From contig JBIJBE010000046.1 of NCBI GenBank assembly GCA_044345405.1, positions 1 through 26,581 on the forward strand: a DNA stretch of 26,581 bases. Reading direction: 5' to 3'. The notes under the pieces were generated by a model. It did not search any database. It saw only the letters and a list, made by a program, of their open reading frames with translations, and was not told the origin of the DNA. Within the stretch, counting starts at the first letter, position 1, and each line of letters opens with the position of its first letter. Source of the DNA: Bdellovibrionota bacterium (GTDB lineage Bacteria; Bdellovibrionota_C; UBA2361; OMII01). Of this stretch, positions 5,992-26,581 are shown one piece after another. Position numbers and translations under genes: made by a program.

Positions 5992-7101
5992 CTATCCATT
6001 CGCGACAGCCTTTTTCTTGCTCTTGGAGGTCTTCTCGGTGATCGTAAGATCCTCATTCGTTGCATCCGCCAACTGTTTAGGGGTAGCGCCAGCTAAGTGA
6101 GAGTCCAAGATGAGGCTTCGGATCTCCTTGGCCATCTCTGGGTTCTCACGGAGGAACTGCTTAGCTCCCTCGCGTCCCTGACCGATTCGCTCACCCTTGT
6201 AGCTGAACCATGCGCCAGCCTTGTCGATGATGCCTTTGTCGCTACCGATATCGATGATTTCACCGAGCAAGCTAACGCCCTCGTTGAAGATGATATCGAA
6301 CTCGGCTTCACGAAACGGAGCCGCTACCTTGTTCTTAACAACCTTCACCTTAACTCGGTTACCGGTTACGTCGTTAGCGTCCTTAATCTGTCCGATACGA
6401 CGAACGTCCAATCGAACTGACGCGTAGAACTTAAGCGCGTTACCGCCGGTGGTTGTCTCTGGGCTTCCGAACATAACGCCGATCTTCATACGGATCTGGT
6501 TGATGAAGATGATGGTCGTGTTCGACTTCGCAGTGATAGCGGTGAGCTTTCGGAGCGCCTTGCTCATCAGGCGAGCTTGCAATCCTGGTTGCTGATCACC
6601 CATCTCACCTTCGATCTCGGCCCTCGGAACGAGCGCCGCGACGGAGTCGATGACGACAAGGTCCACCGAATTTGAGGATACGAGCGCTTCCGTAATCTCA
6701 AGCGCTTGCTCTCCACAATCCGGTTGGCTGACAAGAAGCTTTGAGGTGTCTACGCCAAGACGCTTTGCGTAGTTTACGTCGAGAGCGTGCTCCGCATCGA
6801 TGTACACCACTGTGCCACCTGCGCGCTGAACCTCTGCGGTTGTGCTTAGGGCGAGAGTCGTCTTACCTGATGACTCAGGACCGTAAATCTCACAGATACG
6901 TCCCTTTGGAATTCCACCGATACCGAGTGCTAAATCAAGGGAGAGACTTCCCGTTGAGTAGCTGTCCATTACTTGGCCTTCAGTCGCCTCAAGGTTCATG
7001 ATGGCGCCCTTGCCGAACTTCTTCTCAAGTTGAGAGATCGCGGTTGAGAGAGCTTTTCCCTTTTCTCCGCCTGTCTCACCGTCTCTATCGTAAAGTTCCA
7101 T
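5992..7101 (-). CDS. recA: recombinase RecA
   Basis: Contains GPESSGKTT (P-loop), [26 protein letters not shown] and the signature [22 protein letters not shown] upstream. Confidence 0.99.
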
Positions 7102-7234
7102 TCTGTATCTCCTGTTGTTTGGTTAAATCTTACTATTTATTTGTGGTTCAATCGTGCGGTGCTTGAGATCCTCTATGAACACTACCATGCCTTAAAACAG
7201 TGGTATGCTAAAGAGAGAAAATCCTTCCACCTTA

Positions 7235-7891
7235 CTAGTGAAGCTCTCGGATAACACCGATGAGTCGACCCTGGATCGTTACCTTGTCCACCGTGATCGG
7301 TTGCATCGTTGGGTTCGCCGGGATGAGCATCACCGAGCCGTTCTTTAATCGACGATACCGCTTCAAAGTTGCGCTTCCATCCTCTAGAAGAGCAACGACG
7401 ATCTGTCCATCTTCAGCGTTCTCTTGTTTCTTAATAACGACAATATCCCGGTCGCATATGTGCTCGTCGATCATTGAGTTTCCACTCACCTCGAGGCAGT
7501 AGACCTCGCCACGACCGTTGATCATATTCGGAGGGATATCGATGGTGGCGGCCTGTTCAACCGCTTCTATGGGTCGTCCCGCCGCGATAACACCGACGAG
7601 TGGAACCGCTGTAGGTCCAAGTTCGGGGGTTACACGGTCGAGAAGCTCCAACATTCCATCCACACCCCGTCGAATGAAGCCTTTCTGCTCCAATCTCTCT
7701 AGGTGGAAGTGCGCTGTTGAAGCGGATTTAACCCCGATAAACTCCGCGATGTCCTTAAGGGAAGGGGCATAGCCCTTTTCCGCAAGGAATTTTCTCAAGA
7801 ATTCAAGGGTTTGCCGCTGTACTGGGGCAAGGGTGCTGGATTGGTACGACGAGGCGTCCTCTCCGATCTGTTTACGCGATTTAGCTTTCAT
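7235..7891 (-). CDS. lexA: SOS transcriptional repressor LexA
   Basis: N-terminal wHTH (GYAPSLKDIA..HLERLEQKGFI), Ala-Gly cleavage site IAAG, catalytic Ser (GNSM) and Lys (ATLKR). Lies directly upstream of recA. Confidence 0.96.
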   Translation of the reverse strand: MKAKSRKQIGEDASSYQSSTLAPVQRQTLEFLRKFLAEKGYAPSLKDIAEFIGVKSASTAHFHLERLEQKGFIRRGVDGMLELLDRVTPELGPTAVPLVGVIAAGRPIEAVEQAATIDIPPNMINGRGEVYCLEVSGNSMIDEHICDRDIVVIKKQENAEDGQIVVALLEDGSATLKRYRRLKNGSVMLIPANPTMQPITVDKVTIQGRLIGVIRELH

Positions 7892-13174: not shown

Positions 13175-14113
13175 ATGACCACGCACGTTCTCGTTACCGG
13201 CGGCGCCGGATATCTCGGTTCAGTTCTTTGCGAACATCTTCTCGACGCTGGCTATAAGGTCACCGCGTTGGACTCGCTCTTGTTCGGACAGAACAGCTTG
13301 TTTCATCTCTGCGGCAACCCAAACTTTGAGTTCATCTTCGGTGATTGTCGAGAGGAGCAGGTGATCAAGAAGGCCCTCAAGGGGGTCGACGTGATCATTC
13401 CACTCGCGGCGGTGGTTGGAGCTCCCGCGTGCGATCGAGATCCGTGGCTCACAAAGGAGCTCAACTACGAATCGATCAAGATGCTCAACCGTTTACGGAG
13501 CAAGGAACAGCGGATCGTCTACCCTACCACGAATAGCGGCTATGGAACGAAGTCGGGCAGTATGTTCTGTACTGAGGATACCCCACTTGAGCCGATCTCA
13601 CTCTACGGTCAAACGAAGTGCGACGCTGAGAAGGAACTTCTCGACTCGCAGAACGCGGTGACCCTTCGTTTGGCTACGGTGTTCGGTCTCTCCCCTCGTA
13701 TGCGACTGGACCTGTTGGTGAATCACTTTACGTACATGGCGGTTACTGAGGGATACCTTGTGATCTTCGAGAAGGACTTCAAGCGAAACTTTGTGCACAT
13801 CCGCGACGTGGCGGATTGCTTTATTCACTGTATTCGCAACTTCGACCAAATGAAGGGGCAGCCGTACAACGTTGGCCTCGACGCCGCGAACATCTCCAAA
13901 GAGGAGCTCGCGCTCGCCATCAAGGAACACGTCCCGAACTTCTTCATTCACTTCTCTGAGGTTGGTTCTGATCCAGATAAGCGTAACTACATCGTATCGA
14001 ATCAACGGCTTCGGGAGGCGGGATTCGAGGCGAAGCGATCGCTTTCCTACGGTATCCAGGAGCTGATCAAAGGATATCGTATGTTGAAACGTAATCCGAT
14101 GAGGAACGTATAG
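13175..14113 (+). CDS. extended SDR, GDP-D-glycero-alpha-D-manno-heptose C4-dehydrogenase-like (Cj1427/WcaG type)
   Basis: TGGAGYLG and YGQTK SDR motifs. IIPLAAVVGAP, YPTTNSGYG, RLATVFGLSPRMRLDLLVN and DPDKRNY closely match C. jejuni Cj1427 as recalled. First gene of the heptose operon. Confidence 0.8.
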   Translation: MTTHVLVTGGAGYLGSVLCEHLLDAGYKVTALDSLLFGQNSLFHLCGNPNFEFIFGDCREEQVIKKALKGVDVIIPLAAVVGAPACDRDPWLTKELNYESIKMLNRLRSKEQRIVYPTTNSGYGTKSGSMFCTEDTPLEPISLYGQTKCDAEKELLDSQNAVTLRLATVFGLSPRMRLDLLVNHFTYMAVTEGYLVIFEKDFKRNFVHIRDVADCFIHCIRNFDQMKGQPYNVGLDAANISKEELALAIKEHVPNFFIHFSEVGSDPDKRNYIVSNQRLREAGFEAKRSLSYGIQELIKGYRMLKRNPMRNV

Positions 14114-14115
14114 AT

Positions 14116-14832
14116 ATGATAGGCGAGGTTACCGCGGTCATTCTCGCAGGCGGACTTGGAACGCGACTCCGCGCGGCGGTATCCGACCGTCCGAAGGTGT
14201 TAGCGGATGTCGCTGGTCAGCCCTTCCTTGAGAGGATATTCGAGCAGCTGAGTGGCTTCGGCATCCGAAAGGTGGTGGTGTGTACCGGCTACATGGCTGA
14301 GCAGATTGAGCACCTCTATCCCGCCTCATACAAGGAAATCTCGATCTCGTACTCCCGCGAGCACGCCCTCCTTGGAACCGCTGGAGCCGTTCGCTTCGCC
14401 CTCGAGCACATTCAGACCGACCGGGCGTTGGTTCTTAATGGCGACTCGTACTGTGACTTCGATTATCCGGCGTTTAAGACGTTTCATGAGGGGAAGGACG
14501 CGGATGCCTCGATCCTTCTGACCTACGTTGACGACTGCTCTCGCTACGGCTCTGTTGTTCTCGACGGGAATGGAAAGGTCGAAAGCTTCATCGAAAAGTC
14601 GGGCGCCGGAGGCGCCGGTTTCATCAACGCTGGTGTCTACATGATGGAGCGAGCGCTCATCAAGGAGATCCCGCCGGGTCGGGTACTCTCGCTAGAGAAG
14701 GATATCTTTCCGAAGTGGATTGGACGTCCGTTCTTTGGTCACGCCAGCAACGCACCGATGTTCATCGACATCGGGACTCCGCAATCGTTTGAACACGCGC
14801 AGAGCCTCTTTGCAGGGAGAACAAACTCATGA
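14116..14832 (+). CDS. hddC: D-glycero-alpha-D-manno-heptose 1-phosphate guanylyltransferase
   Basis: Contains ILAGGLGTRL..DRPK, LGTAGA, VLNGDS, INAGVY and FIDIGTP. Adjacent to gmhA and hddA. Confidence 0.85.
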   Translation: MIGEVTAVILAGGLGTRLRAAVSDRPKVLADVAGQPFLERIFEQLSGFGIRKVVVCTGYMAEQIEHLYPASYKEISISYSREHALLGTAGAVRFALEHIQTDRALVLNGDSYCDFDYPAFKTFHEGKDADASILLTYVDDCSRYGSVVLDGNGKVESFIEKSGAGGAGFINAGVYMMERALIKEIPPGRVLSLEKDIFPKWIGRPFFGHASNAPMFIDIGTPQSFEHAQSLFAGRTNS

Positions 14833-15431
14833 AGGACGCGCTTTCCGTTGTGCAACAACGCTTGAGCGAGAGCAACGCCGTTCGTCAGATGGTGATGGAA
14901 CGGTGCGCTCCTCAGATCGTTGATGCGGCCCGGTTGGTAGCCGCGGCCTTCCGTGATGGGAAAAAGCTTCTCTTGTGCGGAAACGGTGGAAGCGCCGCGG
15001 ATTGTCAGCATATGGCGGCTGAATTCGTGAGCCGCTTGACGAAAGAGGTGCAACGTCGGGCTCTCCCCGCGATCGCGCTTACAACAGACACGAGCTTTCT
15101 TACCGCCTTCGCGAACGATTGTGGATACGAGGGTGTGTTCGAGCGTCAGGTGGAGGCGCTCGGTGAGCGTGGCGATGTTCTTCTTGGTATCAGCACGAGC
15201 GGCTCATCGAAGAACGTTGTGCAGTCTATGAAGCTCGCCAAGCAGAAGGGGTTGAAGTGTGTCGCCCTTATGGGTGAGGGGGGCGTTATGAAGGAACTCG
15301 CCGATGTCGCTATCGCTGTTCCGAGTTCCCAAACTCAGTACATTCAAGAGAGTCACCTGAGCATTGAGCACCTGATCTGCGAGCTCGTGGAGCGGGAGCT
15401 GTTTAGTGAAGCATATGAGAGGAAGGTATGA
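14829..15431 (+). CDS. gmhA: phosphoheptose (sedoheptulose 7-phosphate) isomerase
   Basis: Contains CGNGGSAADCQH.AAE, ANDCGY..VFERQVEA, ISTSGSSKNV and IQESH. ATGA overlap with hddC. Confidence 0.95.
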   Translation: MKDALSVVQQRLSESNAVRQMVMERCAPQIVDAARLVAAAFRDGKKLLLCGNGGSAADCQHMAAEFVSRLTKEVQRRALPAIALTTDTSFLTAFANDCGYEGVFERQVEALGERGDVLLGISTSGSSKNVVQSMKLAKQKGLKCVALMGEGGVMKELADVAIAVPSSQTQYIQESHLSIEHLICELVERELFSEAYERKV

Positions 15432-16492
15432 TCATCTCGCGCACACCGTATCGCATTTCGCTCTTTGGCGGAGGGACTGATTTCCCAGCGTGGTATCTCC
15501 GTCACGGTGGCTCGGTAGTTGCCTCATCTATCGACAAGTACTGCTACCTTACATGTCGTCACCTCCCTCCGTTCCTTGAGCACAAGTACCGTGTCGTGTG
15601 GTCCAGGATTGAGCAGACCAACACGATTGATGAGATTCAACACCCAGCGGTTCGCGCGGTTCTCAAGCACGTCGAAATTGACCGAGGTCTTGAGATTCAC
15701 GCGGTAGGTGACCTTCCAGCTCGAAGTGGTATGGGAACGAGCTCCGCTTTCACGGTGGGGCTCCTGAACGCCTGTTACGGCCTCGCGGGAAGAATGATAT
15801 CGAAGAACGATCTCGCGATGGAGAGTATTCATCTGGAGCAGAACGTTCTCAAGGAAGCTGTTGGATCCCAAGACCAGGTATCCGCGGCGTATGGTGGCCT
15901 CAATCGAATTGATTTCCACACAAACGGCGAGATTACCGTGACGCCTGTGACTATTTCGGGCGATCGTATCCGCGAGCTGAATTCGCACCTGATGTTGTTC
16001 TACACAGGAATCGCTCGTACCTCCGCGGAGGTTCAGTCCAAATTCGTGCAGAACCTCGGCGCCAAGAAGCGACAGCTTCGAATTATGAAGGATCTCGTGG
16101 ACGAGAGCATCGCTATCCTCAACAGCCGCGCCGATATCAACGAGTTCGGTGAGCTGCTTCAAGAGGCGTGGGACGTGAAGCGTGGATTTAGTTCTCTCGT
16201 GTCAAACCCTGATGTGGATGATATACACAGTGAGGCTATGGCCGCCGGAGCTATCGGCGGCAAGATAACAGGAGCGGGTGGGGGAGGTTTCCTTCTTCTC
16301 TTCGTTCCCCCAGAGCGACAGCAGAGGGTCAAAGAGGCGCTTCATCGCTTCCTTCACGTTCCCTTCAAGTTCGATTTCGGCGGAAGTCAGATTATATTCG
16401 CCGATCGGGACGCTGACTACTCCTCTGAGGAGAAAGCGCGAGAGCTGAAGAGCCTCACGCCGTTTCGTGAATTAAACTATGGAAAGATTTAA
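15428..16492 (+). CDS. hddA: D-glycero-alpha-D-manno-heptose 7-phosphate kinase (GHMP family)
   Basis: Contains RTPYRISLFGGGTD, DLPARSGMGTSS, GSQDQ and GGKITGAGGGGF. ATGA overlap with gmhA. Confidence 0.9.
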   Translation: MIISRTPYRISLFGGGTDFPAWYLRHGGSVVASSIDKYCYLTCRHLPPFLEHKYRVVWSRIEQTNTIDEIQHPAVRAVLKHVEIDRGLEIHAVGDLPARSGMGTSSAFTVGLLNACYGLAGRMISKNDLAMESIHLEQNVLKEAVGSQDQVSAAYGGLNRIDFHTNGEITVTPVTISGDRIRELNSHLMLFYTGIARTSAEVQSKFVQNLGAKKRQLRIMKDLVDESIAILNSRADINEFGELLQEAWDVKRGFSSLVSNPDVDDIHSEAMAAGAIGGKITGAGGGGFLLLFVPPERQQRVKEALHRFLHVPFKFDFGGSQIIFADRDADYSSEEKARELKSLTPFRELNYGKI

Positions 16493-17147
16493 AGCGGTTC
16501 TCTTCGACTTTGATGGCGTTATCGGAAAGACGATGGAGGATAGCTGTCGGGCTTGGGCACAGGCGTGCACCGAGTTCGGTCTCACCTTTGATCCAGAGGA
16601 GTTCTACCTCTGTGAGGGGATGAAGTCGACCGAATACGCCGCTCGTTTGGTGAAGCGTCATGGACGGGACGCCGCCGAGGCCGGAAAGCTCGTCGCTCGG
16701 AAGAACGAGATCTACTCGTCCAATAATCAGTTCTCATTTTACGTCGGTATCGAGAGTCTCGTGGAGCGCCTCCGAGATGACGGCATCAAGGTTGGCGTTG
16801 TATCTGGCGGGAGTCGGCAGCGTCTTCTCTCTGGTCGCTCCGGAGAGCTCCTCAAACGGTGCGATACGGTGGTTACAGGGGATGAATTGAAGCAGGGGAA
16901 ACCATCACCTGAGGGGTATATGCGTGCCGCTCATGAGCTTCAGGTGTCCCCAGCCGAATGTCTCGTAATCGAGAACGCGCCTCTTGGCATCGAGTCCGCC
17001 AAGAACGCTGGCATGCGGTGTATCGGAGTGTGCTCGACCCTCTCGTCTAGCCATTTACGGCAGGCCGATGAGGTTGTGACCGATCACGCTGAATTAGTGC
17101 AGCTCTTTGTTGATGGGGGCTCGGGTTGCCTCAAGGCGGCCCAGTAG
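16479..17147 (+). CDS. HAD-superfamily phosphatase, subfamily IA (beta-PGM/CbbY-like cap)
   Basis: Motif I FDFDGVI, motif II VVSG, motifs III/IV GKPSPEGY and VIENAPLGIESAKNAGM. Overlaps the hddA stop. Confidence 0.88.
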   Translation: MERFKAVLFDFDGVIGKTMEDSCRAWAQACTEFGLTFDPEEFYLCEGMKSTEYAARLVKRHGRDAAEAGKLVARKNEIYSSNNQFSFYVGIESLVERLRDDGIKVGVVSGGSRQRLLSGRSGELLKRCDTVVTGDELKQGKPSPEGYMRAAHELQVSPAECLVIENAPLGIESAKNAGMRCIGVCSTLSSSHLRQADEVVTDHAELVQLFVDGGSGCLKAAQ

Positions 17148-17182
17148 GATTTAGAAGGTCTCGGAGAGGAAGAGGAGGGGAT

Positions 17183-18385
17183 ATGCAATGTAGAATTTGT
17201 GACAGTACGAACCTCGTACCGGCGTTGGACCTCGGGTTGCAACCGTGGGCTAACCACTTCCTCTCATCAGAAGAGGTCGGGAGTGAGCCGAAGTACCCCC
17301 TCTCGCTCGTCTACTGTAACGACTGCTCTTGCGTGCAGCTCGACTATACCGTGCCGAAAGAGGTGATGTTCGCGGACCACACCTACGTATCCGGAACCAC
17401 CAAGACCCTCGCGCAGCATTTCATGAACACCGCTAAAGAGGTGGACAGACTCTTCACCGCCGGCAAGGCTCATAAGAGTGTGCTTGATATCGGCTCTAAC
17501 GATGGAACCCAGCTCAAGCAGTACAAGGAATTAGGCTTTGAGGTGAAAGGAGTGGAATCGTGCGCGAAGATCGCCAAGCTCGCTAACGACGCTGGTGTTC
17601 CAACGGTCGCGGAGTTCTTCAACGAGGAAACAGCTGCGAAATTAGATCAAAAATTCGACGTTATTAACGCCTCAGGTGTGTTTTTTCATCTAGAGGAGCT
17701 TCACTCCGCCACTAAAGGGATCAAGCGAGCGCTCAAAGAGGATGGCGTGTTCGTGATTCAGTTCCTCTACATGAAGAGCATTGTGGAGAACCTCGCGTTC
17801 GATCAGATTTATCATGAGCACCTTCTCTACTATACCCTTAAGACCGTTGAGAAGCTCCTGGCGCGTCACGGACTGACCGGATTTGATGGGTATCTCTCAC
17901 CGATTCACGGTGGTTCGATGATCCTCTACGTCACCCATCAGGAGGCGAACCGTCCTACGAGTGAGCGCTTGAAGGCTCTTATCGCGGAGGAGGATAAGGC
18001 GCGCTCAAATGAGCTCTCAACGTATCAAAAGTTCGCCGAGCGAGTAGCGGCCATGAAGCGTGAGACCCTCGCGTTCCTTGAGGGCGCTAAGCGAGAGGGG
18101 AAGAAGATCTTCGGATTTGGGGCTCCCGTCAAAGGAAACACCTTCCTTAACTACTGCGGAATTGGGCGTGACTACCTCGATTGTCTCGTTGAGAAGAACG
18201 AGTTGCGTCGTGGCTTGTACTCGCCGGGGATGCATATCCCGCTCGTGATTGAGAAGGAGGTATCAAACCATCCGGATATCTACTTCTGTCTCGCATGGAA
18301 CTTCAAGGACGAGATCCTCAAAAATAACAAACACCTCATCGATCAGGGGGTGAGCTTCTTTTTCCCGGTTAACCCTAAGGAGTAG
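17183..18385 (+). CDS. SAM-dependent NDP-sugar C-methyltransferase
   Basis: Zn site CRIC...CNDC, SAM motif DIGSNDG, catalytic FDQIYHEH, HGGS, GAPVKG and LAWNFKDEI, i.e. TcaB9/KijD1/EryBIII-type architecture. GGAGG RBS before ATG 17183. Confidence 0.88.
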   Translation: MQCRICDSTNLVPALDLGLQPWANHFLSSEEVGSEPKYPLSLVYCNDCSCVQLDYTVPKEVMFADHTYVSGTTKTLAQHFMNTAKEVDRLFTAGKAHKSVLDIGSNDGTQLKQYKELGFEVKGVESCAKIAKLANDAGVPTVAEFFNEETAAKLDQKFDVINASGVFFHLEELHSATKGIKRALKEDGVFVIQFLYMKSIVENLAFDQIYHEHLLYYTLKTVEKLLARHGLTGFDGYLSPIHGGSMILYVTHQEANRPTSERLKALIAEEDKARSNELSTYQKFAERVAAMKRETLAFLEGAKREGKKIFGFGAPVKGNTFLNYCGIGRDYLDCLVEKNELRRGLYSPGMHIPLVIEKEVSNHPDIYFCLAWNFKDEILKNNKHLIDQGVSFFFPVNPKE

Positions 18386-18387
18386 GT

Positions 18388-19314
18388 GTGAAGATATTCA
18401 TAACTGGCGCCACAGGATTTTTGGGCACCCATCTCGTGAAACACCTTCGCGGAGCGGGGCATGATGTCACCGCGGTTGGGTCTAAGGAATGTGACTTGAC
18501 GCGACAGGGCTCTCTTCAGGCTTTTAATCACACCAAGTGGGACCATATCTACCACCTCGCCGCGTGGACGCAGGCCGGTGATTTCTGTCTTAAGCACCCC
18601 GGGGAGCAGTGGATCAAGAATCAACAGATCAACACGAATGTGCTGGAGTGGTGGCACACATCGCAACCTCAGGCGAAGATGATAGCGATTGGTACGAGCT
18701 GTTGCTATGAACCCGGAACCCCTCACGTCGAGGAGCGCTTTCTCCTGGGAATGCCAACGGAGAGCCTCTACACCTACGCGATGACGAAACGGATGTTACT
18801 CGTTGGTCTTCAGTCACTGGCGCGACAGTTCGGTCTCACATATCTCTTCGTGGTTCCCTCAACGCTGTACGGTCCGGACTATCATCTCGATGGGCGACAG
18901 ATGCACTTTATCTTCGATCTTCTTCGGAAGATCGTTGATGGTAAGTACAAGGAGACTCCAGTTGAGCTCTGGGGAGATGGTACGCAGAAGCGGGAACTTA
19001 TTCACGTCGACTCGTTTGTCTCAACTATGACCTACCTCGCGCACAACGTGGATAACGAGGTCTTCAACATCGGTGGCGGCGAGGAGCATCCGATCCGATC
19101 TTTTGCTGAGATGCTCGCTGAGTATGTAGGGTATGACGCCTCGAAGATTACCTATGACACCACGAAGTATGTGGGCGCGACTTCGAAGTTTTTGGTTGTT
19201 GATAAGGTTCGCAAGGCGGTTCCCTCCTTCAATCCGATTCCCCTCGATCAAGGCTTGCGGGAGATCGTGAACTGGTACCTCGCGGCCCAAAAGCTCGCAA
19301 GGACCGCCGCCTAA
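18388..19314 (+). CDS. GDP-L-fucose synthase-like epimerase/C4-reductase (Fcl family SDR)
   Basis: Contains TGATGFLG, HLAA, GTSCCY, YAMTK, LYGP and WGDGTQKRELIHV. GTG start after AGGAG, 2 nt after the previous stop. Confidence 0.82.
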   Translation: MKIFITGATGFLGTHLVKHLRGAGHDVTAVGSKECDLTRQGSLQAFNHTKWDHIYHLAAWTQAGDFCLKHPGEQWIKNQQINTNVLEWWHTSQPQAKMIAIGTSCCYEPGTPHVEERFLLGMPTESLYTYAMTKRMLLVGLQSLARQFGLTYLFVVPSTLYGPDYHLDGRQMHFIFDLLRKIVDGKYKETPVELWGDGTQKRELIHVDSFVSTMTYLAHNVDNEVFNIGGGEEHPIRSFAEMLAEYVGYDASKITYDTTKYVGATSKFLVVDKVRKAVPSFNPIPLDQGLREIVNWYLAAQKLARTAA

Positions 19315-22126: not shown

Positions 22127-23089
22127 TTATACCTCAGGAAACCACCGAACCTTTGGATATCGAAATTTGGTGAGGAGCTTAATGTTGGTGACCGAGCTCC
22201 CAAACGCTTCGTAGATCTCCTGCATAATAACGCTGACATCTTCTTGCGCGGGAACCTCAACACCTATCTCGAATCCCCATACGCCGAAGCACTCGAATAG
22301 ATACACCACATCAGGGTGTTGGGAGCAGAAGGCGTGCATCTTCTTGCTCATATCGGGATCGATACCCTTGGTATAGATGAGAAGCTTATAGCTTTGCCTC
22401 TCAAATTTTGACGGGCTTACGACGTAGATATCCCCAACGATGACCTTCCTTTCTCGGAGCTTTTTGATTCGTAGTTCAAGTGTCGAGAGGGGAACTCGAA
22501 CCTTGCTCGCGAGTTGGCGGTGGGAGAGATCTCCAAAGGTTGAGAGCGCGCCGAGTACACGCATATCGAGTTCGTCGACCTCCACAGGCTCGTCGGTGTA
22601 TCGGATGTGAATCGGGTCCACCGAAAATTTTCGAGAGGAGAGGTATCGTCGTGGATAGAGCGTGGAGGAGATAGTGAGAGAGACCGCTTTCTCAAGGAAG
22701 ACATCTTTGTGTTTCCGAGAGATAGAGTGGAGGAAGTCGATCACGTGGGCGGGGCGTCTGGCGCAAAACGCGACGCCGTAGTGATACTCCCCGCCGAATT
22801 CACCAACCCACAGTACCTCTGGCGAGGAGACGAACGATTTCACAAGCGCCTGTCGCGCGGTCTTTCCCAAAGCTGCGGAGGAGAAGAATACGTTGTATAC
22901 GGAGAACCCGATCTGATGAAGGTTGATGACGGGGAGCGGTCGGATAATCTCCCGTTCCCTCAGGCGCCGGAGAGCGTGCCGAACGATATGTTCACGATAC
23001 CCTGACTCCTTACGCAGTACCTCAATCGGCGCGTGAGCTCGAAGCTCGGCGGCCGCCAGAATCGTCGCCTCTTTGTCGCTTAACTTCAT
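22127..23089 (-). CDS. tandem (double) Lrp/AsnC-family transcriptional regulator
   Basis: Two HTH+RAM units: MKLSDKEATIL..VRHALRRLREREII..INLHQIG..EFGGEYH, and VDELDMRVLGAL..SHRQLASKVRVPLSTLELRIKKL..ECFGVWG. GGGGAG RBS before ATG 23089. Confidence 0.82.
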   Translation of the reverse strand: MKLSDKEATILAAAELRAHAPIEVLRKESGYREHIVRHALRRLREREIIRPLPVINLHQIGFSVYNVFFSSAALGKTARQALVKSFVSSPEVLWVGEFGGEYHYGVAFCARRPAHVIDFLHSISRKHKDVFLEKAVSLTISSTLYPRRYLSSRKFSVDPIHIRYTDEPVEVDELDMRVLGALSTFGDLSHRQLASKVRVPLSTLELRIKKLRERKVIVGDIYVVSPSKFERQSYKLLIYTKGIDPDMSKKMHAFCSQHPDVVYLFECFGVWGFEIGVEVPAQEDVSVIMQEIYEAFGSSVTNIKLLTKFRYPKVRWFPEV

Positions 23090-23184
23090 ATCTGAAAATC
23101 TCCCCTGTTTTGGGGTTCGAAGCAACGACGATTTCAGAAAGGTTTGGGAATCCCTGGACGGGTCATCAATAATTAGGTGAGTTC

Positions 23185-24717
23185 TCATCGGTACAAACCT
23201 CGCTCCTTTGTGTAGTGGGGTACCCCGGGGGGAAGTGGAAGTTTCTCCTCGCCGCGCGCGATTCGCTGACGCAGTTCCGTTGAACTGAGTGGTTGCCCCT
23301 CGTAGGGCACCACGTTGGCTACAAGGCTCTCGACAGTTGAGGGTCCCAGCTCCCGCGTCAACTTTTCGAGGAGTTTATGATCGTTCGCGATATCACTGAC
23401 GCCAGGTCGTTCAACAGGGATAAGCTCCGCGAGGTTCGGAATGCGGAGGTAGTCCTTCCATCGAGAGAACGTGACGAGGCTGTCAGCACCCACGATGAGA
23501 AAGAGTCGACATTGCTCGGGTGAGAGCTCTTTGCGGAGGCGTTCGAGGGTTTCAATCGTATACGCGACCCCTGCGGTCCTCGACTCAAAGGTTGAGACGA
23601 ACATCCGAGGATCGTTTCGAAGGGCGTAGAAGAGCATATCGACCCTCTCAAGGGGAGACGCGTGAGGTTCGCGCTCCTTGAGGGGGTTATGTCCCGTTGG
23701 GAGGTAGATAACGGCGTCGAGGTGATGGTGCTCAGCCGCGCGTCGTCCGATCTCGATGTGCGCGTTATGGACGGGGTCGAAGCTGCCTCCAAGGATTCCC
23801 ACACGCCCGGTAAGATGCGCTACGTTCGTGAGCAGAGGCGAAGGAGGAACCTCAGCGAGTTGGTTTCGTACCTCAACGGATATCTCTGGATGGATAATTC
23901 GAAATTGCGAGAGCGCCATCGAGAGGAGTTCCCCGTGATTCGCGTACAACGAGCGGATTAGATCAGGGGTCACGGTCATCCATCTGGCGTCCAGGGCGTC
24001 TGATAATCCCGTTGGTGCGGAGTGGTGAATCGCGCTCTGGGGTGAGAGATGAAAGTGATAGGCACTCGTCTCCACCCACGCGTTGTCCGTCACTCGGGGC
24101 CCATCGCCGACGCCTTGATAGACAACGTGAGGAGATGTTTCATCCATCGTTATGCCGGTCTCCTCGGTTAATTCGCGGTACGCGGCGGCAAGTGGTGTTT
24201 CTCCATCATCAACCATGCCACCAGGGATCGCCCATGCGCCACACCCTCGCTGAATGAGAAGGATCTCGAGGAATCCGGTGGTAGGAGATACGCGTGTCAC
24301 GATGGCGTCAGCGGCGTGATTCGGTCCCCATTTTCCGAGCAACCCTCGACCCTGGATACCCGTGCGGCCAAGAGGATTGAGGGGGCGTCCCGTTTCCTGG
24401 TCATGCTCAATCGGTCCTTCAAAGCTCTTCATCTTTCCTGTCGCGCTCCACTCCAGGAACTCATCGCGGGAAACGGTGGCGGGATCCGCCCATCCGCCAG
24501 GAACTACGGTTCGGTCGTTCAAGGCGAGTTTTGGAGACTCGTAGAAGGGGGGATCGTACTGCTGATGTTCGTGTCGCCACGCACGTACGTGTGGTGGGAC
24601 GTGGGTGCGTTCCGGGTAGCCCGCCGCGGTCGTGAGCGGCTTCTCTGAGCGAGGCGGGAAGGTGAGAGCGGACTCGGTTCGATGTTCAACGGTGTGCGTG
24701 CGGTTTACTGCGAGCAT
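23185..24717 (-). CDS. nadD: fusion of NUDT9-type ADP-ribose pyrophosphatase (N-terminal) and nicotinate-nucleotide adenylyltransferase NadD (C-terminal)
   Basis: N part: WADP, NPLGRTGIQGRGLLGKWGPNHAADAIVTR, Nudix box GMVDDGETPLAAAYRELTEETG, TDNAWVET, LYANH. C part: GILGGSFDPVHNAH, NPLK, YTIETL, IVGADS..F.RW, LSSTELR. AGGAGG RBS before ATG 24717. Confidence 0.9.
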   Translation of the reverse strand: MLAVNRTHTVEHRTESALTFPPRSEKPLTTAAGYPERTHVPPHVRAWRHEHQQYDPPFYESPKLALNDRTVVPGGWADPATVSRDEFLEWSATGKMKSFEGPIEHDQETGRPLNPLGRTGIQGRGLLGKWGPNHAADAIVTRVSPTTGFLEILLIQRGCGAWAIPGGMVDDGETPLAAAYRELTEETGITMDETSPHVVYQGVGDGPRVTDNAWVETSAYHFHLSPQSAIHHSAPTGLSDALDARWMTVTPDLIRSLYANHGELLSMALSQFRIIHPEISVEVRNQLAEVPPSPLLTNVAHLTGRVGILGGSFDPVHNAHIEIGRRAAEHHHLDAVIYLPTGHNPLKEREPHASPLERVDMLFYALRNDPRMFVSTFESRTAGVAYTIETLERLRKELSPEQCRLFLIVGADSLVTFSRWKDYLRIPNLAELIPVERPGVSDIANDHKLLEKLTRELGPSTVESLVANVVPYEGQPLSSTELRQRIARGEEKLPLPPGVPHYTKERGLYR

Positions 24718-25727
24718 GGTGTGCCTCCTGGGATAATCACCTGACATGGATGGGGATCGAGGGAGATCTCAGCGACCGTGCCTCGTGGAAAGGGAATTGA
24801 GTCGAGGGAATCGCGACTGGCGATCCCCTCATCGTCGTTCAGTGATGTAATACGAAGGGATTCTCCCTCAAGGAGGGATCCCTCAACGAGCTTCGGAAGC
24901 TTAGTCACCCGTTTCCCGTCGACCTCCTCCACCGTTACCGATGGCTCTCGCAGTTCAAATCGAGCGAATCGAGCGGTTTTCGGAAATGAGCGATCCTGCT
25001 CACCAAGGTAGAGACCCGCGCTCGCGTACCAACCGGTGGATCCTACGCCGGTGCTGATAAGGAGCCCTGAAGACCTTTGTGTGATCTTCTCTCCCCGATA
25101 CTCGAGCTCGTGTCGTGAGGTCAGTCGAAAGTCCCGTTTCCCCAAAACGATATCGTTAATCGCGGAGCCCCGCTCGATCCCGTCTACGGTGAGCGCGAGC
25201 TTGGTCCACTCCTCAACACGATAATCGCCGGTTTCCAGTCGATGTAACGCGTCTGGAAGTCGCTCGATCGTTATCGGTAGAAGGGCTCCGACGCTGGAAG
25301 CTGGATCGGAGTTTACCCCGAGAATCGGGAGATCGCTCGGGGCTCGATGGCTTAGTAGTTTAAAGAAATCATCGCCCCCAAGCGCGATAATCACCTTACA
25401 TCGAGAGAGTATCTCCGTTCTCTCAAGCTGCTCCAAGGAGATGATCTGTTCCGAGCCTAATTCCGCCGCGCACAGTGTGAGCGCCTGCTTGTGGCGCAGG
25501 TGTGCCCCGAGGATCCGCAGACCGCTCTCCCCGAGGGAGTTGTAACGAGCGACGAGGTCGTCATCTGAGAGCTTCGTTTCGAGCTGCTCCCGCTCAAATC
25601 GACTCATCTTGCTCACGACGATGATCTGATCTCGAGCGATGATGGGAGCGCGTCCAGCGCGGGTGTTGGACGCCTGAGGCATCGTCAGTCCGCTAGGTTC
25701 CGGTATTCCGATCTCCTGTCTTAGCAT
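24705..25727 (-). CDS. NAD kinase family protein, NADK2 (mitochondrial-type)-like
   Basis: Contains IALGGDD, PILGVNSDP..SVGAL, AIND and QRSSGLLISTGVGSTGW. GGGAGG RBS. Sits between pncA and nadD. Confidence 0.82.
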   Translation of the reverse strand: MLRQEIGIPEPSGLTMPQASNTRAGRAPIIARDQIIVVSKMSRFEREQLETKLSDDDLVARYNSLGESGLRILGAHLRHKQALTLCAAELGSEQIISLEQLERTEILSRCKVIIALGGDDFFKLLSHRAPSDLPILGVNSDPASSVGALLPITIERLPDALHRLETGDYRVEEWTKLALTVDGIERGSAINDIVLGKRDFRLTSRHELEYRGEKITQRSSGLLISTGVGSTGWYASAGLYLGEQDRSFPKTARFARFELREPSVTVEEVDGKRVTKLPKLVEGSLLEGESLRITSLNDDEGIASRDSLDSIPFPRGTVAEISLDPHPCQVIIPGGTPCSQ

Positions 25728-26440: not shown

Positions 26441-26581
26441 TTATTTCTTTGAGTTATAAAAGCCGTGAGAGATCGGCATACGCCTTCCGATTCCGAATGA
26501 GTGCGGCGTTACCCGGATTCCTGGCGCCGCTTGACGTCTCTTCCATTCCGAGCGGTCTATTCGAGCGAACGTTCGGCGGAT
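26441..26581 (-). CDS. nadE: NAD+ synthetase (glutamine-dependent type), 3' end only; gene runs off the window
   Basis: Manual minus-strand translation gives IRRTFARIDRSEWKRRQAAPGIRVTPHSFGIGRRMPISHGFYNSKK*, matching the C-terminal E.KRRQ..PG..FG..RR.PI motif of Gln-dependent NadE. The stop is 9 nt before the pncA ATG. Not in the ORF track. Confidence 0.88.
   Translation of the reverse strand: MRRTFARIDRSEWKRRQAAPGIRVTPHSFGIGRRMPISHGFYNSKK

Follow-up and report, generated by a model that had tools for sequence, protein, structure and literature searches.

A single uninterrupted gene on a contig from a Bdellovibrionota bacterium (GTDB lineage Bacteria; Bdellovibrionota_C; UBA2361; OMII01) joins an N-terminal ADP-ribose (ADPR) pyrophosphatase domain of the NUDT9 type to a C-terminal nicotinate-mononucleotide adenylyltransferase, NadD. 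The window, meaning the whole stretch of DNA analysed here, is that entire contig (JBIJBE010000046.1 of assembly GCA_044345405.1; 26,581 nucleotides (nt)), which is contig C4 among the 85 contigs of a 3.59 Mb draft genome, G000. We consider it probable, at roughly three chances in four, that the product is a bifunctional enzyme, at once ADPR pyrophosphatase and nicotinate mononucleotide (NaMN) adenylyltransferase, within a self-contained module that would return both products of NAD cleavage to use. The gene and its parts are the following, with conservation taken from an alignment of 36 fusions.

23185..24717, minus strand: NUDT9-like Nudix::NadD fusion gene, 510 amino acids (aa), stop codon included, placed by homologue length and Shine-Dalgarno sequence
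24724..24729, minus strand: Shine-Dalgarno sequence AGGAGG, 7 nt 5' of the fusion ATG at 24717 and within the 3' end of the upstream kinase gene
23863..24660, minus strand: NUDT9-type ADPR pyrophosphatase part, N-terminal cap plus Nudix core, residues 20-285 (1q33, 1qvj and domain envelope)
24307..24378, minus strand: NUDT9 signature NPLGRTGIQGRGLLGKWGPNHAAD, residues 114-137, near-invariant
24154..24222, minus strand: canonical Nudix box GGMVDDGETPLAAAYRELTEETG, residues 166-188, conserved
23821..23862, minus strand: conserved, ordered inter-domain linker, residues 286-299, with P294 near-invariant and consensus PHxPLLT
23188..23820, minus strand: NadD part, residues 300-510 (TIGR00482, 5deo)
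23758..23790, minus strand: nucleotidyltransferase motif GGSFDPVHNAH, residues 310-320, with H320 invariant and H317 at least 90% conserved
23269..23286, minus strand: SSTELR motif, residues 478-483, with R483 invariant and S478 at least 90% conserved

The open frame runs without interruption over 23185..24747 on the minus strand, which gives 520 aa when counted from the first ATG; the upstream ATG at 24747 is thus an alternative start. Because fusion homologues are 510 aa long and AGGAGG stands 7 nt before the ATG at 24717, the 510-aa frame 23185..24717 is the likely gene. This agrees with the first-pass annotation of this DNA, made from the letters alone, which had described a single unbroken frame of that length and had named a stop or frameshift between the domains as the observation that would overturn it. 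The stretch is present in twenty lake-water metagenome runs. Four lake-water runs, none flagged as a possible source, were taken for a check of the junction (about 23820-23862); in 4/4 it is spanned by Logan contigs with zero inserted or deleted letters, and no stop or frameshift separates the domains.

The fused architecture recurs across genomes and is nevertheless rare. In a species-level set, 10 of the 91 genomes of the window's order carry it, under four family codes: G000 and nine further genomes with the same fused frame, namely G020, G014, G011, G047, G009, G003 (where a contig end cuts the gene), G040, G078 and G081. Stand-alone NUDT9-like genes occur in eight genomes of the order. 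The remaining 33 genomes of the phylum, a small one (124 species genomes compared), gave zero matches. Among protein clusters at 90% identity, 374 of which matched at E <= 0.001, both domains are found in 60 of the best 120, some of the 60 being truncated gene calls; the source names of these clusters say nothing beyond 'ADP-ribose pyrophosphatase' or 'nicotinate-nucleotide adenylyltransferase'. A phmmer search of 1.84 billion representatives at 50% identity found the junction spanned, as judged from matched ranges, in 19 of the best 150. The ESM Atlas has no cluster of at least 50 members for the fusion, and the nearest clusters there by features are phage NadM-Nudix proteins of 352-367 aa (0.88-0.89), which serve as a lead only. 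The first-pass annotation had also raised the concern that the architecture might already be common; its share of the order, 10 genomes of 91, shows it to be rare. That the genome is a draft assembled from a metagenome, in 85 contigs, might favour an artefact, in which a misassembly, or a sequencing error masking a stop or frameshift, has run two neighbouring genes together. That reading is refuted by the recurrence across the 10 genomes, the 60 clusters and the 19 representatives, and by independent contigs from 4/4 runs that cross the junction without an indel; we regard it as vanishingly improbable.

The N-terminal half is NUDT9-like well beyond its Nudix core. Pfam PF00293 (NUDIX) is found in the fusion protein at E 4.9e-15, and when the N-terminal 320 aa are compared with the PDB, residues 45-279 of the query align with chain residues 17-274 of human NUDT9 (1q33) at E 6.7e-34. 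This match takes in the cap domain and aligns NPLGRTGIQGRGLLGKWGPNHAAD with NUDT9's own copy. The next-best PDB sequence matches are the NUDT9H domains of TRPM2; NUDT5 and bacterial ADPRases match at the Nudix box only, with E about 1e-5. Pfam PF25969 is precomputed on every NUDT9-like match of the 90%-identity cluster search, and our local Pfam scan of the fusion protein did not report it. GYPER lies at residues 33-37, GGWADP at 74-79, the NUDT9 signature at 114-137 and the Nudix box at 166-188, which places in the protein all of the hallmark, cap motifs and canonical box that had been claimed from the letters; the NUDT9-type assignment itself is upheld by the full-length match to 1q33 and by the fold of 1qvj. 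The box follows the pattern GX5EX7REUXEEXGU, catalytic glutamates included, and in the 36 aligned fusions E173, R181, E185 and E186 are invariant and E182 is at least 90% conserved. The Nudix half probably hydrolyses free ADPR.

The C-terminal half is a complete NadD domain, again as first proposed. Pfam PF01467 (CTP_transf_like) is found at E 2.5e-17, and the NCBIfam model for NadD, TIGR00482, scores 137.1 bits against a cut-off of 112.45, with model positions 1-194 covered. The fusions of G047, G009, G078 and G040 also pass this cut-off; that of G081, at 109.2 bits, falls below it. Both expected motifs are present: HNAH (residues 317-320) and SSTELR, which we take to be of the (H/T)xGH and ISSTxxR types, respectively. 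With the catalytic residues of both domains invariant or at least 90% conserved in the 36 fusions, both halves look catalytically competent across the family.

An AlphaFold2 model, a check that the first-pass annotation had suggested, was built from the alignment of the 36 fusions (A1; 36-80% identity to its first row). Its mean predicted local distance difference test score (pLDDT) is 91.1 and its predicted template modelling score (pTM) is 0.90; the linker has a pLDDT of 90-95. In Foldseek comparisons with the PDB, the N half resembles NUDT9 1qvj (E 1.2e-19, template modelling score (TM) by target 0.67, 32% identity) and also matches the TRPM2 chanzyme. The C half resembles NadD of M. abscessus (5deo; TM by target 0.90, root-mean-square deviation (rmsd) 2.4) and of B. 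subtilis (1kaq; TM by target 0.89). Among the matches listed, no chain covers both halves, and the best TM by query is 0.40.

The fusion is the last enzyme gene of a module ordered as NAPRT-like gene, NadE, PncA, NADK2-like kinase, fusion and Lrp-like regulator. Its neighbours within the window are these.

26444..26581, minus strand: 3' end of glutamine-dependent NadE (last 46 codons, 138 bases; tblastn), the remainder lying at the end of contig C30
25748..26431, minus strand: PncA nicotinamidase (NF008623, 220.3 bits against a cut-off of 174)
24705..25727, minus strand: divergent, NADK2-like member of the NAD kinase family, 340 aa, with a 13-nt overlap into the fusion start
22127..23188, minus strand: Lrp/AsnC-like regulator, 353 aa, its ATG overlapping the fusion TGA (ATGA, 4 nt)

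The overlaps of 13 nt between kinase and fusion and of 4 nt between fusion and regulator indicate translational coupling. The NadE of the operon scores 507.8 bits on NF010588, against a cut-off of 479; on contig C30 it is preceded by the NAPRT-like gene, which reaches 163 bits on NAPRT models, below cut-off. The synteny of PncA, NADK2-like kinase and fusion holds in 6/6 fusion loci first examined, and in G047 and G081; the locus of G078 is without the kinase. NadE lies upstream in every fusion locus whose contig extends that far. The NAPRT-like gene stands upstream of NadE in G000, G014, G009, G047 and G078, and by coordinates also in G003, and its place in G040 is taken by an opposite-strand UDPGP-family gene. 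G019 and G045 have PncA and a stand-alone NUDT9-like gene, not the full enzyme set.

The module is accessory. The NAPRT-like gene is present in 8/35 genomes of the genus, and G000 carries, in addition, NadA (found in 5/5 genomes tested), a canonical NadK on contig C48 and a stand-alone NadD that adjoins a second NadE (C79:22722-25288; L101:4708-7304). This C79 NadD, at 106.8 bits, narrowly misses the TIGR00482 cut-off, and the C79 NadE reaches 261.6 bits where its cut-off is 479. Of nine fusion-bearing genomes checked, eight have a stand-alone NadD as well, and G009 showed no more than a 43-residue fragment. The first-pass annotation was right about the architecture of the fusion and missed the setting from which its function is read, a complete accessory operon of Preiss-Handler and NAD-kinase genes in a genome with a second, core set of NAD genes. 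As a separate observation, the core NadD and NadE pair of the genus (C79) is adjacent and unusually divergent.

In the bifunctional reading, the N-terminal domain would convert free ADPR to AMP and ribose-5-phosphate, with O-acetyl-ADP-ribose as a probable second substrate giving the same products, and the C-terminal domain would adenylylate NaMN to nicotinate adenine dinucleotide (NaAD). Nicotinamide would pass through PncA, NAPRT, the NadD domain and NadE, and perhaps on to the kinase; the module would cover the complete route from nicotinamide to NAD, and probably to NADP, and would also dispose of ADPR. The presence of PncA, the NAPRT-like gene and NadE in the operon suggests that the NadD half prefers NaMN over nicotinamide mononucleotide. 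The recycling logic is proposed by analogy with two known fusions, NadM-Nudix and COG1058-PncC, to which we return below. Neither domain passes an intermediate to the other; the most likely benefit of the fusion is therefore not channelling but co-expression at a one-to-one ratio and co-localisation.

Several points weigh against this interpretation. The products of the Nudix domain are not substrates of NadD, and the selective reason for a physical fusion is left unexplained. The high pTM and the conserved linker of the predicted structure would equally fit allosteric coupling. The module is not a fixed unit, given that G078 has no kinase and that G019 and G045 have only PncA and a stand-alone NUDT9-like gene. 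Finally, the divergence of the kinase, which has GGDD in place of GGDG, makes its substrate uncertain.

It is possible, if unlikely, that the Nudix domain is instead a pool-controlling pyrophosphatase acting on dinucleotides of the pathway or on products derived from NADP (NAD(H), NaAD, 2'-phospho-ADP-ribose), and not a scavenger of free ADPR. A synthase would then be joined to its antagonist, buffering NAD(P). Such a role is given to the Nudix domain of NadM in PMC9503650. With a NAD-kinase-like gene directly upstream, NADP-derived 2'-phospho-ADPR would also be a plausible substrate. Arguing the other way, the domain is of the NUDT9 type along its full length, cap included, NUDT9 is a highly ADPR-specific enzyme, and the operon is geared to net synthesis. 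The structural evidence could point elsewhere. A confidently predicted inter-domain geometry (pTM 0.90) and a linker both ordered and conserved might be expected if the NUDT9 domain were mainly an ADPR sensor that switches NadD allosterically, its hydrolysis slow or vestigial. The NUDT9H domains of TRPM2 are ligand sensors, chanzyme structures are among the best matches, and Nudix-like ADPR sensors such as NrtR control NAD genes (PMC2330246). We nevertheless judge this very unlikely, in that the full Nudix box is kept in the 36 fusions, with four of the five residues named above invariant and E182 at least 90% conserved, whereas the box is degenerate in those NUDT9H and NrtR domains that act as sensors only.

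A distinctly unlikely scheme would draw sensing and catalysis together in an ADPR-gated NAD synthase, whose NUDT9 domain senses and slowly clears ADPR or O-acetyl-ADP-ribose and so switches NadD on only during NAD cleavage. Were this true, the rigid, conserved interface would relay the switch, in a manner likened to the sensing and slow clearing of the choanoflagellate TRPM2 chanzyme, and the accessory operon would answer NAD loss autonomously. The cause of such loss in related genomes might be an NAD-consuming process linked to an orphan protein of ~1030 aa that contains a GNAT fold and is encoded in the same module (described below).

The origin of the two halves was considered in domain trees, both of them unrooted and composed of the sequences most similar to the query. 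For the Nudix domain, a quick maximum-likelihood tree was made of 95 NUDT9-like domains, after truncated domains and fusions outside the 36-member alignment had been dropped. The 36 NadD-fused domains form one side of a branch with a Shimodaira-Hasegawa-like approximate likelihood-ratio (SH-aLRT) value of 84, which is not strong; this pattern is compatible with a single fusion event. The lone eukaryotic sequence falls among other bacterial architectures, outside the NadD-fused set. In the NadD tree (119 sequences), the fused domains join the stand-alone NadDs of the order's other families and one from G019, with an SH-aLRT value of 94, and the genus's own C79-type NadD makes up a separate clade on a long branch. 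Because it groups with stand-alone NadDs of the order's other families, the fused NadD looks native to the order. NUDT9-like domains were also seen in many other bacterial architectures (P0258, P0261, P0100, P0102, P0097), including giant proteins, 2900-4000 aa long, in which as many as four stretches matched; their fusion partners include an inosine-uridine nucleoside hydrolase (PF01156), PF15891 and a Mu-F-like head protein domain (PF04233).

The closest known counterpart is NadM-Nudix. There too, one polypeptide combines a pyridine-mononucleotide adenylyltransferase of the PF01467 superfamily with a Nudix ADPR pyrophosphatase, is encoded beside the matching phosphoribosyltransferase and is read as linking NAD consumption to regeneration (PMC3680494, PMC9503650, PMC2330246). 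The fusion described here differs in having the Nudix domain first, NadD rather than NadM, and a NUDT9-type Nudix domain with its cap, and its module follows the deamidated route (PncA, NAPRT and NadE) rather than NadV. NadM-Nudix models (PRK05379) give it 27.5-36.9 bits against cut-offs of 354-449 and align only residues about 161-275, the Nudix core. Judged by these models, the fusion falls outside the NadM-Nudix architecture, and its domain order is reversed. The contrast with NadM-Nudix that the first-pass annotation had drawn therefore holds for domain order, and for the families in that TIGR00482 lies above its cut-off; the statement that both domain families differ needs one qualification, as NadD and NadM share the nucleotidyltransferase superfamily PF01467 and differ at family level only.

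Other systems resemble the fusion in part. COG1058-PncC (CinA) likewise joins an ADPR pyrophosphatase to an NAD-recycling enzyme, in that case NMN deamidase (PMC3680494); its pyrophosphatase fold is MoeA-like, not Nudix, and the partner enzyme is another one. Human mitochondrial NUDT9 (1q33/1qvj) and TRPM2 NUDT9H share with the fusion the cap and Nudix core, the signature and the Nudix box, at 32% identity. NUDT9, however, stands alone and NUDT9H is joined to an ion channel, whereas here the partner is a biosynthetic enzyme. In a gene cluster described in PMC2330246, pncA, pncB, nadD and nadE are grouped with a Nudix-family gene beside nadD. The Nudix-like protein of that cluster is a DNA-binding repressor; here NadD is fused to a catalytic-type NUDT9 domain, and the module has an Lrp/AsnC-like regulator and, in addition, an NADK2-like kinase. 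The NrtR model NF050029 gives the fusion 29.1 bits against a cut-off of 400, and the Pfam scan found no helix-turn-helix family in the fusion protein.

The first-pass annotation knew of no characterised example, and the literature searched contains no description of one: the NUDT9-NadD architecture was not found described, nor any paper with both 'NUDT9' and 'NadD', subscription journals and supplements lying outside the search. The passages found in a Nudix-clan review (PMC5389931) mention neither NadD nor such a fusion. According to PMC3680494, ADPR pyrophosphatases yield AMP and ribose-5-phosphate, reusable as ATP and phosphoribosyl pyrophosphate, and both types known there, NadM-Nudix and COG1058-PncC, tend toward fusion with NAD-recycling enzymes. 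As such fusions are already a recurrent theme in that source, we see the present one as a third instance and not as a new principle. It would be the third independently evolved case of an ADPR pyrophosphatase joined to an enzyme that rebuilds NAD. Among these it would be the first to use a NUDT9-type domain and the first to serve the deamidated (NadD) route. This would strengthen the view that bacteria handle ADPR disposal and NAD resynthesis as one task. A nicotinamide-to-NADP cassette appears as an extra in some freshwater bacteria able to make NAD de novo, and one may ask which NAD-consuming process it serves there. The relevance is moderate and lies with specialists in NAD metabolism and in Nudix proteins and TRPM2, for whom a compact bacterial NUDT9 homologue and an NADK2-like kinase could provide comparison material for the human mitochondrial enzymes and for the ligand-sensing domain of TRPM2.

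Among the neighbouring proteins, the kinase has human mitochondrial NADK2 (7r4j, E 6.2e-10) as its best PDB match. It meets NCBIfam NAD-kinase models at E about 1e-12, far below their cut-offs, Pfam reports no family for it, and seven orthologues carry GGDD or GGDN in place of GGDG. In the ESM Atlas it lies closest to unnamed 'sugar kinase / polyphosphate kinase' families from Actinomycetota, Verrucomicrobiota and Spirochaetota.

One winged helix-turn-helix was detected in the regulator, at residues 205-250. The regulator beside the module is 55-91% identical in five loci and 50-56% in three more, and no orthologue (E <= 1e-60) was found in 5/5 module-less genomes of the genus (96-98% complete), so it travels with the module. 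In a tblastn search with a relative of 325 aa from G014, members of its family turned up at nine or more paralogous sites in G000. Between G000 and G040 the regulator orthologue is 72% identical, against 43-51% for the module enzymes. A conserved motif lies 5' of the NAPRT-like gene at L100:11130-11200 (C30), reading TAATTCATACAC..ATTAGC..(12-14)..AAATTAGCATA and followed by a short GC hairpin. It recurs upstream of the operon's first gene in five genomes of two families (alignment A3) and could be a promoter or else an operator for the Lrp-like regulator. A search with Rfam at gathering threshold over the window and L100 (the C30 locus) returned one tRNA only and no riboswitch.

The wider surroundings are an ordinary chromosomal context: recA and lexA are adjacent on the same strand at 5992-7891 (minus) of the window, a sugar-nucleotide/heptose-type biosynthesis cluster follows at 13175-19314, and no mobile-element genes lie near the NAD module. 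A defence origin was rejected after PADLOC gave only a 23.6-bit match at the Nudix box and weak helix-turn-helix matches, and a phage origin after PHROGs gave generic Nudix families only.

In five related genomes, though not in G000, the orphan protein of ~1030 aa adjoins the Lrp-like regulator in the NAD module. Its genes are as follows.

L097:1329-4430: ~1030-aa orphan
L094:9679-12744, minus strand: ~1030-aa orphan
L116:1554-4646: ~1030-aa orphan
L115:10698-13673: ~1030-aa orphan
L113:14167-17196, minus strand: ~1030-aa orphan

Neither a Pfam family nor a PDB sequence matched the orphan, and in a set of 5.8 billion proteins it is represented by only 14 clusters. Its AlphaFold2 model is poor overall (pLDDT 46.5); the only part that could be assigned, residues about 44-276, is predicted to have the fold of a GNAT acetyltransferase (VIA Z 14.5, rmsd 2.7, 162 aligned). 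The minimal set of G019 and G045 consists of the regulator, this orphan, PncA and the stand-alone NUDT9-like gene.

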